Source: a phage
Length of the DNA: 64,000 nucleotides
NCBI GenBank assembly: GCA_022901335.1
Contig: GCA_022901335.1_3641.1
Strand: one strand, 5' to 3'
Each line of letters opens with the position of its first letter. The stretch's first letter is position 1. The notes under the pieces are model-generated. The model was not told where the DNA came from, ran no database searches, and saw nothing but the letters and a program-made list of their open reading frames with translations. The translations under genes and the position numbers were made by a program. Positions 9,087-63,081 of this stretch are shown here, piece by piece.

Positions 9087-9638
9087 ATGATCAGAGCGCC
9101 ATTAGATAATTTATTTCTTGAAAAGCTGGAGCTTGATGGTGTTGAGATCTTAATTGCTGCAAAGCTGGAGCTACCGACAGGAACTGTCAGGGTGTGCTCA
9201 GGCACTGGTGTTGTAGTAATTGAGGGGCAACATTTTATAGGGATAGGGGGATCAGCAACATTAACTGCTGTGTCTGAGAAAGATGCCACCAACTTCGGAT
9301 CTGTGGTAGCAACATTGAACGGGTTTGATCCTAAGTATGTGGGTGATCTGCTGAAGACGGAGTATTCTGGTTGTCGTGCCACGTTGTACATTACCGCTAT
9401 GGAGAATGGTCTACCTGTCACAACTAATGGCTTGTTTGACGGCCTTATAACAGATATGGCTATTCAGACAGGTGAGAATAGTGCTTTGTCCATATCCATC
9501 TCTTCCATCTTCAACAGTTGGTTAAGAGGTTTTCCTTATCGGTACACGGAGGAAAGCCACAGCTCAAGAAACGATAATGACAGATTTTTTAAATATGTGG
9601 ATCAGGTGGCGAGCCGCCCGATCATTTGGGAGGTTTAA
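9087..9638 (+). CDS. tail assembly/minor tail protein
   Basis: ATG at 9087 after RBS GAGG (track start 9072 is TTG); stop overlaps next start (TAATG). Confidence 0.45.
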   Translation: MIRAPLDNLFLEKLELDGVEILIAAKLELPTGTVRVCSGTGVVVIEGQHFIGIGGSATLTAVSEKDATNFGSVVATLNGFDPKYVGDLLKTEYSGCRATLYITAMENGLPVTTNGLFDGLITDMAIQTGENSALSISISSIFNSWLRGFPYRYTEESHSSRNDNDRFFKYVDQVASRPIIWEV

Positions 9639-10063
9639 TGAGCACACACCCTCGTTTAGTGGATTGGCAAGAAAGATTGTGGAAAGTGTTTGACGAAGAG
9701 GCCACCATACCTTTTGAATGGGGATTCCACGATTGTTGCACCTTTGCGGCTAAGTGTGTTGATGCCCAATACGGAACAGATTTTCTTTCCAACTTCGAAG
9801 GAACGTATAAAACAGAGTTGGAAAGCAAAAGATGGTGCATGCTTCGTTTCAAAACTACACACCTGCCTACTATTTTTGATCTCTTTATGACTCGGCTGGA
9901 TACTCCTAAACAGGTTCAGCGTGGAGATATTGTCATTTTCGAAGGTCTGAACGGCCTCACCGCTGGTGTGTTCTGGAACAACCAGATTTTGGCGAAAGGT
10001 GATAAAGGGGTCTTTATGTTCGATATGAAAGATTCTATCGTTGTTGATGTCTGGAGGTATTAA
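9638..10063 (+). CDS. tail-associated protein, possible Cys-His (NlpC/P60-like) peptidase
   Basis: ATG 9638 overlaps upstream stop; FEWGFHDCCTF Cys motif; sits where gpK/gpI-like genes precede gpJ. Confidence 0.4.
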   Translation: MSTHPRLVDWQERLWKVFDEEATIPFEWGFHDCCTFAAKCVDAQYGTDFLSNFEGTYKTELESKRWCMLRFKTTHLPTIFDLFMTRLDTPKQVQRGDIVIFEGLNGLTAGVFWNNQILAKGDKGVFMFDMKDSIVVDVWRY

Positions 10064-62065: not shown

Positions 62066-62109
62066 TATTTTAAGTTATCAGGTTGCCAGAGATCAGGAGG
62101 ATTTCTAAA

Positions 62110-62322
62110 ATGGATTTCCTCCTTTTGATATTTTACCTACCAGGATATTTTAAAATCCTTAGAAAATCAGAAAATGGATCGAAAACTAAAATGGATTTTT
62201 CAGAGCAGGCACGACGAGATGAACCACTCATCCTATCGTCTGCACCATATTCCAGACCACCATTACAGATTTCCCGCACATGCTCACACCCTTCTACTAG
62301 AACTTCCCCCACTTACCTTTGA
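62110..62322 (+). CDS. possible small protein (70 aa) in repeat-rich region
   Basis: ATG 62110 nine nt after AGGAGG; hydrophobic N-terminus; overlaps AAAATGGAT repeats, so weak. Confidence 0.25.
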   Translation: MDFLLLIFYLPGYFKILRKSENGSKTKMDFSEQARRDEPLILSSAPYSRPPLQISRTCSHPSTRTSPTYL

Positions 62323-62375
62323 CCTTTTATAGTAATAATCCAACCACTACCTTGAAGTTGTGGCGCAGCTTTCCA

Positions 62376-62560
62376 AGTACTCGATCTGTTTTTCGTTTCA
62401 AAGATTGAATTTTCTGAAAATTTTTCTCGATAAATTTCTCAGTACTCGATCTGTTTTTCGTTTTCTGAATCGGATTTTCTGGAAATCGTTCCGGCTCTCG
62501 ACCTGAAATTTTTGGGGACGAAATCGATTTTTCGTTTTCAGAAATGGATTTTTAAAATTT
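62376..62560. repeat. three iteron-like direct repeats (core CGATCTGTTTTTCGTTTTC + GATTTTCTG)
   Basis: copies start near 62376, 62441 and 62515; AT-rich non-coding context. Confidence 0.5.
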
Positions 62561-62666
62561 CTATATGGGAATATTTTAGTGGATACTATTTTATAGGAAA
62601 TTGTTACGGAGGGTAATTAGCGTGCTAATTAAATTTATTAAATGCGAGGAGTTCTCATTTAGAATT

Positions 62667-62685
62667 TTGAATGATAATCATTCTC
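62667..62685. promoter_or_regulatory. Fur-box-like palindrome A
   Basis: 15/19 matches to GATAATGATAATCATTATC with ATGATAATCATT core intact. Confidence 0.4.
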
Positions 62686-62784
62686 GTTTGCAGAATAACG
62701 GGCAGGCCTGGTGATTGTCTCCCGGCCCCTACTGCCCCGGCTTGTTATTATAGTAACACACAGGACAAAGAAAGCAAGAAGTTT

Positions 62785-62814
62785 TTGCATAAATTTTTAG
62801 ACGATAATGATAAT
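62785..62814 (+). promoter_or_regulatory. sigma70-like promoter TTGCAT-N18-GATAAT overlapped by Fur-box B
   Basis: -10 hexamer lies inside the Fur-box-like palindrome. Confidence 0.4.
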
Positions 62815-62821
62815 CGTTCTC
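62803..62821. promoter_or_regulatory. Fur-box-like palindrome B
   Basis: GATAATGATAATCGTTCTC is 17/19 to the E. coli Fur consensus. Confidence 0.5.
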
Positions 62822-62901
62822 ATTTCATGCAGCGCCCATCCCCGGTGGTTGTCTCCCCCGTCACCGGTGCCTGCCGTCCTTTCGATAGGTATATTTTGCC
62901 A

Positions 62902-63040
62902 CCTGGCGGGGCCACTGTCAACACTTTTCAAAAAAAAATTTCTAACCTGATGCGCTGACCGCTGCAACCTGGCGGGGCCAGCCTGGCAGGGCCTAACTGA
63001 CCAGGTAGGAGATAATGAAGGCTTGCAAACCTGGTGGGCC
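62902..63040. repeat. four copies of CCTGGYRGGGCC motif
   Basis: copies at 62902, 62968, 62982 and 63030; each contains a CCTGG (CCWGG) site. Confidence 0.4.
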
Positions 63041-63051
63041 TATGCTATAGG
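63023..63051 (+). promoter_or_regulatory. possible sigma70-like promoter TTGCAA-N17-TATAGG
   Basis: hexamers 30 bp upstream of the 63082 ATG. Confidence 0.3.
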
Positions 63052-63081
63052 ATAGGTAACAATTGAAGAGGAGGTACAAAA

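Follow-up and report, generated by a model that had tools for sequence, protein, structure and literature searches.

The subject of this work is a window of 64,000 nucleotides (assembly GCA_022901335.1, contig GCA_022901335.1_3641.1) from an rV5-like Escherichia coli phage of the genus Vequintavirus, and within it a stretch of about 1 kb that is free of genes and carries two palindromes of the Fur type, sites A and B, along with a degenerate third one. We lean towards the reading that these are Fur-type operators in a phased array, that this array is conserved in Vequintavirinae and Stephanstirmvirinae and occurs also in T5-like phages, and that it would act in cis and be bound by Fe2+-Fur of the host. 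Binding of Fur to the sites is, taken by itself, a prediction that we regard as probable. From the evidence given below we infer Fur as the ligand in vivo, together with a transcript or cis function under its control. The elements concerned are the following.

62066-63081, no strand: gene-free region, flanked by small plus-strand genes; open reading frames (ORFs) annotated in its interior are not conserved.
62641-62659, no strand: degenerate third 9-1-9 site, AATGCGAGGAGTTCTCATT, 12.7 bits, centred 29 bp left of site A.
62664-62682, no strand: weaker Fur-type site that overlaps site A with an offset of -6 bp, 13.3 bits.
62670-62688, no strand: core of site A, 9-1-9 inverted repeat AATGATAATCATTCTCGTT, 24.0 bits, 17/19 identity to the host fhuA operator.
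62800-62818, no strand: weaker Fur-type site that overlaps site B with an offset of -6 bp, 15.5 bits.
62806-62824, no strand: core of site B, 9-1-9 inverted repeat AATGATAATCGTTCTCATT, 24.8 bits, 17/19 identity to the host exbB operator.

Both the ORF list of the window and the annotation of 99% identical phages place the Fur-type sites inside the gene-free region, which is 99.5% identical to its counterparts in phages bov10K2, JeffSchatz and rV5_ev168. Site B (62803-62821, GATAATGATAATCGTTCTC) matches the Fur consensus GATAATGATAATCATTATC at 17 of 19 positions and site A (62667-62685, TTGAATGATAATCATTCTC) at 15 of 19; coordinates and match counts are exactly those of the original prediction, which was made from the letters of the window. 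A 19-mer with three or fewer mismatches to the consensus is expected 0.01 times per 64 kb, and within the window it occurs at site B alone.

Scoring with a Fur weight matrix, suggested as a check at that time, was performed with a symmetrised 19-bp matrix of 9-1-9 form. The matrix was trained solely on E. coli K-12, using 11 Fur-regulated intergenic regions (fepA-fes, fepD-entS, fepB-entC, fhuA, ryhB, fur, tonB, cirA, exbB, fecI and fecA). The 9-1-9 form corresponds to a single-dimer Fur site, as shown by Chen et al. (PMC2189734), who also confirmed binding of Fur to the ryhB, fhuA and exbB operators by gel shift. Sites A and B score 24.0 and 24.8 bits, respectively; the training sites of the host range from 11.3 to 24.6 bits, the best of them being ryhB. 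Leaving ryhB, fhuA and exbB out of the training set lowers A and B to 21.4 and 22.5 bits, and the host maximum is then 21.6. Only positions 62670 and 62806 reach 18 bits or more in the window, and random 64-kb sequences give 0.06 such sites. The matrix is specific: within 43 kb of E. coli DNA, all sites that reach 15 bits fall in Fur-regulated intergenic regions. The operators that the same procedure selects in the host are AATAATAATCATTCTCATT for ryhB, TATAATAATCATTCTCGTT for fhuA and ATTGATAGTCGTTCTCATT for exbB, and sites A and B are only one or two bases away from them (17-18 of 19 identical).

Natural Fur sites form overlapping clusters with offsets of 6 bp or 3 bp (PMC2189734). A 6-bp offset is seen at 62664/62670 and at 62800/62806 and recurs in phages ukendt, Mydo, CR8 and KPP-1, although this pattern is partly a product of the internal periodicity of the motif.

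Similar sites occur at the same place in other phage genera. Gaps of about 1 kb equivalent to 62066-63081 and likewise free of genes were found in Phapecoctavirus, Mydovirus, Certrevirus, a Serratia phage and phage W70. Using a sensitive search, the core surrounding site A (62629-62779) was detected in the gaps of these distant phages at 70-86% identity, and the homologous non-coding regions of at least five other genera hold one to four Fur-type sites each, with matrix scores of 14-26.5 bits. Adjacent palindromes are spaced 29 bp from centre to centre in every genus, the sole exception being a distance of 38 bp in CR8, while the 10-bp spacers between them differ in sequence among genera. The degenerate third site of the window stands at the same 29-bp spacing from site A. 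The two sites first noticed are real, but they are not isolated: they are members of a phased, family-wide array in a conserved non-coding region. These comparisons are based on GenBank phage records; IMG/VR yielded few relatives of the region (three contigs retrieved by composite pattern, two via a flanking protein).

Alignment of 19 units from seven phages shows high information at positions -9 to +10 and low information in the spacers. When a frequency matrix is built from these phage sites, its correlation with the Fur matrix of E. coli is r = 0.92, as against 0.52 at most for column-permuted controls. Within seven closer Vequintavirus relatives, the only change at site A concerns its uninformative centre base and is seen in a single phage; at site B, five of the seven have T62814C. 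Departures from dyad symmetry in the palindromes are uncompensated, and 10 of 19 mismatches lie at +/-4. This points to selection on two protein half-sites rather than on a hairpin, and the palindrome itself as an RNA or DNA hairpin was ruled out on the same ground. Taken together, matrix scores equal to those of the best host sites, the correlation of 0.92 and conservation across genera bear out the proposal that these are Fur boxes, and the identity as Fur-type operators is supported as well as sequence analysis allows.

The surroundings of the palindromes are conserved as well. From left to right, the shared layout comprises three iteron-like repeats, one to four palindromes, a conserved block, an extended -10-like element and a leftward promoter of the TTGACA-N17-CATAAT type. 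The conserved block reads (G)CAGAAT(R)RC-GGGCA..GGTGnTTGTCT and lies inside G+C-rich inverted repeats. In the window, these and further neighbouring elements are as follows.

62367-62552, plus strand: three iteron-like direct repeats, period 65-74 bp, with AGTACTCGATCTGTTTTTCGTTT core (repeat family D1/D2), upstream of the Fur-type sites.
62667-62696, plus strand: possible weak promoter TTGAAT-N18-CAGAAT with site A in its spacer, 8 of 12 consensus positions, read from the sequence.
62700-62740, no strand: G+C-rich inverted repeat after site A with invariant GGTGnTT motif (CCTGGTGATTGTCTCCC, 62707-62723), from alignment columns.
62743-62751, plus strand: P2, extended -10 promoter-like TGtTATTAT, inferred; aligns with TGTGTATAAT in Certrevirus and Mydovirus.
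62785-62814, plus strand: promoter TTGCAT-N18-GATAAT of the original prediction, overlapping site B (-35 at 62785-62790, -10 at 62809-62814), 8 of 12 positions, unreported by the promoter scan.
62841-62857, no strand: second copy of the CCyGGTGrTTGTCTCCC block, end of the A/B repeat of about 55 bp (repeat family D8, alignment).
62893-62921, minus strand: P_L, sigma-70 promoter-like TTGACA-N17-(TG)CAAAAT, directed towards site B, 10 of 12 positions, from the promoter scan.

Sites A and B each head a copy of a direct repeat, AATGATAATC(A/G)TTCTC..TGCAG..CC(T/C)GGTG(A/G)TTGTCTCCC. Its alignment score of 36 exceeds the maximum of 24 in 500 shuffles. Pairwise alignment limits the shared unit to about 55 bp, not the approximately 90 bp supposed at first. 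GATC is present in two of the three iteron-like repeats, whose counterparts (GGGTTCTCGATCG..TTTTTCG..GATCGTATT) occupy the same relative position in other genera. At least four copies of AAAATGGATTT lie alongside them (62367-62552, also 62102-62200), and repeats and copies together may constitute an origin or another cis site.

The hexamers TTGCAT-N18-GATAAT at site B were previously taken for the classic architecture of a Fur-repressed promoter. They are present, but the promoter is weak and has no counterpart in other genera, and its last -10 base (T62814) is C in five of seven Vequintavirus relatives. TTGAAT-N18-CAGAAT at site A is a possible promoter. It is kept in Certrevirus and the Serratia phage; in Mydovirus the -10 reads CTGAAT and in W70 the -35 is lost. 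P2 and P_L are better kept than these two candidates. P2 is unchanged in seven Vequintavirus relatives and is represented elsewhere by AT-rich -10-like hexamers. P_L has counterparts in CR8, POP15, Mydo, ukendt and W70. In relatives its -10 varies as CAAAAT, CACAAT or CATAAT, with the two critical positions, A2 and T6, kept. P2 and P_L converge at a distance of about 130 bp and enclose site B. The P2-P_L interval of other genera is instead occupied by a highly conserved block of about 100 bp (ACCGGCGATCCACCTTCC..GTTAGCCCCGCCTTTTCGCCGTGGGGTGGCG) that has no Rfam match. As for published work, the rV5 genome paper lists no promoter in the region (PMC3606486), and the early promoters described in the CB7 paper are sigma-70-like only.

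If Fur is the ligand, Fur dimers in an iron-replete host would occupy A, B and their -6 partners, and in relatives one to four sites 29 bp apart. Bound Fur would constitute a block beside the iteron-like repeats. Such a block may repress or obstruct the weak local transcription units, i.e. the rightward TTGAAT-N18-CAGAAT and P2 and the leftward P_L, so that activity of the region would depend on iron; alternatively, access to the iteron-like repeats might be the target of the iron-dependent block. At high phage copy number, the same sites may also absorb Fur.

Sites of this type are not limited to relatives of rV5. In T5 (AY587007), the Fur matrix detects sites at 9473 (22.2 bits), 9577 (26.5 bits), 9612 (22.1 bits) and 9618 (20.0 bits). 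These coincide with the annotated palindromes E, G and I and with copies of direct repeat C (Repeat Region 3). They adjoin DnaA boxes and lie directly left of the 7.9% nick (9661-9668), at the calculated shear point of first-step transfer (9618). The injection-stop region of T5 resembles the region of the window in having the same palindrome at about 29-35 bp, followed by a G+C-rich inverted repeat and direct repeats within a large untranslated region. It differs in that the T5 array lies in a 10-kb terminal repeat, by paired DnaA boxes and the 7.9% nick, whereas no DnaA box occurs in the region of the window. The Phapecoctavirus region aligns at 81% with 57 bp of a T5-like array. The T5-type array pattern AATGAGAATnATTxTCATT with short conserved spacer is present, and SP01-like contigs carry 29-bp units. 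T5-like sites often possess the canonical ATTATC half. In T5, these elements have been described solely as repeats and palindromes of unknown function, and the analysis by Davison does not mention Fur. No paper linking first-step transfer with Fur, and no prior description of Fur boxes in rV5-like, virulent or T5 phages, was found in the literature searched.

The exact palindrome was also retrieved from at least 120 viral contigs of IMG/VR, which represent at least 85 sequence groups with G+C contents of 0.21-0.57. Among the matches listed, 72 of 120 are accompanied by additional sites that reach 18 bits, and at least 283 non-overlapping sites of at least 16 bits occur in 982 kb. Some of the contigs among these listed matches are 345 kb long, and several sites are situated at contig ends. 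Since IMG/VR includes proviruses, some of these palindromes may precede iron-uptake cargo genes.

It may tentatively be supposed, as a wider and rather doubtful extension, that two or more unrelated lineages among virulent enterobacterial phages (rV5-like, T5-like) share a cis-acting, phased Fur-operator module and use Fur as a structural host factor at special sites of their genomes. In T5, bound Fur might then serve as a brake or anchor in two-step injection. In rV5-like phages, where the module lies in the gene-free region and near the terminal repeat, it might gate replication or early transcription according to iron, or the sites might form a sponge that feeds the reductases.

Several points weigh against host Fur acting at a cis-acting array. 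Of the 19 units, 18 have ATTCTC as their right half-site, while the Fur matrix prefers ATTATC (56% A and 19% C at this position). W70 has a single site of moderate score (14.3 bits). Fur sites, whose clusters have 3- or 6-bp offsets, are not known to be rigidly phased at 29 bp or uniformly oriented. This arrangement would suit a dedicated phage protein equally and, together with the position beside iteron-like repeats, forms the chief reservation. The matrix was built from 11 sites, chosen with the consensus as seed. The sites have no strong conserved promoter overlapping them, unlike classical Fur-repressed promoters. Finally, the evidence is wholly computational, and binding of Fur is predicted.

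The most serious alternative, although we consider it unlikely, is that a dimeric protein of the phage itself, such as an initiator or early regulator, uses the palindromes as its operators or origin repeats, its specificity resembling the Fur box by coincidence or copying it deliberately. Bound every 29 bp beside iteron-like repeats, its dimers would assemble into a complex with an origin or regulatory role. Such a protein would account for a spacing and orientation that are maintained (save in CR8) even though spacers diverged among genera, for the proximity of iteron-like repeats, for the systematic preference of GAGAAT/ATTCTC over the Fur optimum and for the missing conserved promoter overlap. 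It would also fit the confinement of clustered sites to two gene-free regions, one of which contains a 514-bp terminal repeat in KPP-1 (PMC9862379). On the other hand, the 19-bp site of an unrelated protein would need to agree with the Fur box at 16-18 of 18 positions and with the ryhB, fhuA and exbB operators at 17-18 of 19. The motif is present also in T5-like phages, frequently with the canonical ATTATC half, and in numerous unrelated viral contigs whose G+C contents vary widely. Its occurrence in unrelated phages makes a conserved host protein a simpler explanation than a lineage-specific phage protein. Moreover, no candidate for the phage protein was found. In distant relatives, a small minus-strand ORF lies right of the conserved block (62-88 amino acids, motif LHxLGWQGGTVHQV, one at 1819-2085 on the minus strand); it has no Pfam match and is absent from the window. 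Genes flanking 62066-63081 belong to phage protein families of unknown function. A Fur homologue encoded by the phage is not apparent either, as tblastn with an E. coli Fur sequence gave no match better than E = 3 in the phage genome.

The second of the two gene-free regions is located outside the window. In a 99% identical phage, of which the complete genome was scanned, clustered palindromes of at least 15.5 bits are confined to these two regions, and over both of them a related genome has about seven Fur-type sites. The second region spans 2.5 kb at the junction of plus- and minus-strand gene blocks:

90968-93521 of JeffSchatz (MZ501082): second region, in which Fur-type sites of 15.7-18.3 bits form two pairs at an 18-bp distance, amid numerous further repeats.

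In KPP-1 (Mydovirus), a 514-bp direct terminal repeat was reported from read coverage (PMC9862379). The equivalent gap of that phage (1700-2460) contains the terminal repeat along with sites of 23-24.6 bits. Reports on termini of related phages disagree, the terminal repeat of KPP-1 standing against circular permutation and headful packaging in phiTE and BpE1AUH. A genome terminus at 62066-63081 was considered because one record ends inside this region; it was rejected, as record starts are arbitrary and the sole terminus data of the family, those for KPP-1, map to the other gene-free region.

Whether 62066-63081 is a replication origin can be judged from its features in part. Tandem repeats at 62367-62552 and palindromes spaced 29 bp apart beside an A+T-rich stretch resemble an iteron-type origin. 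Against this, neither TTWTNCACA nor TTATC[AC]ACA (DnaA boxes) occurs on either strand of 62066-63081 and no IHF consensus was found in the gene-free region, the functions of the flanking genes are unknown, and G+C skew tracks transcription direction only. The lambda O protein, a phage initiator, binds palindromic repeats at ori-lambda. The array resembles ori-lambda in comprising several inverted repeats of about 19 bp, in tandem and in phase, by other repeats and A-tract-rich DNA. It differs in that no initiator gene contains or adjoins it and its motif is that of the host Fur box; in rV5 no origin has been found (PMC3606486).

Another possibility, which we hold to be rather improbable, is a trans-acting sponge: the replicated sites, in hundreds of genome copies, would pull Fur off host promoters, derepress iron uptake and RyhB iron sparing, and so provide iron for the ribonucleotide reductases of the phage. 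Fur is an abundant protein, with thousands of copies per cell, and titration would therefore need late, high-copy replication. That the sites equal the strongest host operators, lack a convincingly attached promoter and number about seven in two regions of a related genome is consistent with a sponge. The idea is attractive because the phage encodes iron-dependent ribonucleotide reductases; a related genome codes for class I and class III enzymes and an activase. Multicopy Fur boxes do titrate Fur, and the Fur titration assay cited in PMC2189734 exploits this. However, neither 29-bp phasing nor a set place with respect to conserved blocks would be required of a sponge, and some relatives (W70, Mydo) have only one or two sites. 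The fixed geometry with respect to flanking conserved blocks favours a cis-acting role over a pure sponge.

It was further suggested originally that the sites control a small RNA (sRNA). In its full form, each site would be the operator of a promoter for a small iron-regulated phage RNA, the repeats of about 55 bp representing two paralogous sRNA genes. Both repeat units do begin with a site and hold a conserved GGTGnTTGTCTCC block in G+C-rich inverted repeats, and promoter-like hexamers are found at both sites. Nevertheless, this explanation is very unlikely and the suggestion did not hold; a riboswitch was rejected as well. Neither the window nor any of five related loci matched an Rfam family; the sole signal, 22 bits to a thermometer family with a gathering score of 126, is attributable to chance. 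No terminator was found after either repeat unit. Fold z-scores are -0.5 to -1.7, not better than shuffles on either strand. This applies also to the inverted repeat at 62700-62740, whose stems vary among genera with no consistent covariation. The consensus fold comprises nine pairs with a covariation term of -0.2 kcal/mol, its stems shift among genera, and it merely reflects complementarity between half-sites and GAAT. In addition, the site B -10 is lost in five of seven relatives. Since GGTGATTGTCTCC loosely resembles ToxI, the pseudo-ToxI of phiTE, a non-coding RNA of Vequintavirinae that mimics an antitoxin, was considered as well; it belongs to a different locus (106714-106772 of JQ015307), flanked by tRNA genes and the terminase gene.

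That functionless A+T-rich palindromes arose by chance, or form part of a missed coding sequence, is hardly credible in spite of the low G+C content of the region (41%) and of the short ORFs annotated across it by some depositors: 0.01-0.06 such matches are expected per 64 kb, the sites are conserved among genera (70-86% overall identity) while spacers diverge, the ORFs lack codon-position bias and are interrupted in relatives, and this reading is refuted as far as sequence analysis can do so.

Two of these ORFs deserve mention. A plus-strand ORF of 95 amino acids (62671-62958) contains in-frame stops or frameshifts in several relatives, and substitutions are spread over the three codon positions as 14, 15 and 17. 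Broken in relatives and devoid of codon-position bias, it is not coding, in accordance with the earlier remark that no gene is obvious downstream. A minus-strand ORF of 43 amino acids (62659-62790) is intact in eight close relatives, but its variable codons replace amino acids and no counterpart was seen in other genera; it was likewise rejected. Depositors differ in the hypothetical proteins of 30-95 amino acids that they call across 62260-62958 (JeffSchatz bas55_0098 to bas55_0100; NHEP1, magaca).

Some further features of the region were recorded. CCWGG is enriched fourfold in the gene-free region (seven in 1016 bp versus 1.6 per kb across the window), and a Dcm-like cytosine methyltransferase is encoded by a 99% identical phage. 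CCWGG and GGSCC are found in the spacers of promoter-like sites, likewise in CR8 and POP15 early promoters. TGCNACCTGGCGGGGCCA is present twice, at 62897 and 62963 (region 62893-63050). Also, 16 or 17 GenBank records named "Campylobacter phage" (including MG065635, MG065646, MG065655 and MG065658; host Campylobacter jejuni) share 95-99% identity here with E. coli rV5-like phages. These records are probably mislabelled or derived from contaminated lysates.

Returning to Fur-type operators in a cis-acting array, comparison with known systems shows both likeness and difference. The phage sites share with the ryhB, fhuA and exbB operators of E. coli the 19-bp 9-1-9 repeat, the asymmetric ATAATCATTCTC core, the secondary site at a 6-bp offset and equal scores. 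In contrast to the host operators, which overlap the -35 and -10 of a defined iron-regulated promoter, they lie in gene-free 29-bp arrays. Boxes for regulators of the host have been described in virulent phages before, as PhoB boxes in cyanophages and CtrA boxes in alphaproteobacterial phages (PMC10976474, PMC9437464), and Fur boxes precede the prophage cargo sitABCD on lambdoid phages (PMC6969025). The common feature is phage DNA with sites for a global host regulator, by which phage behaviour is tied to host physiology. Those boxes precede identifiable genes, whereas here a phased array without gene or clear promoter is found in a strictly virulent phage.

Host-regulator boxes in phages being already known, what makes this case of interest is the conserved phased array and its unexpected tie to the T5 injection-stop region. 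If Fur binds the sites, virulent phages used for O157 typing and therapy (rV5-like, phAPEC8-like, possibly T5) would sense or manipulate host iron via a DNA module that contains no gene, a logic different from that of Fur boxes ahead of prophage cargo genes. A 1-kb region that is left empty in genome papers, or covered there by spurious ORFs, would thereby receive a function, and the T5 injection-stop palindromes, so far unexplained, would gain a testable link to Fur. Iron limitation in the gut or at sites of infection might then alter the efficacy of rV5-like and T5-type phages.

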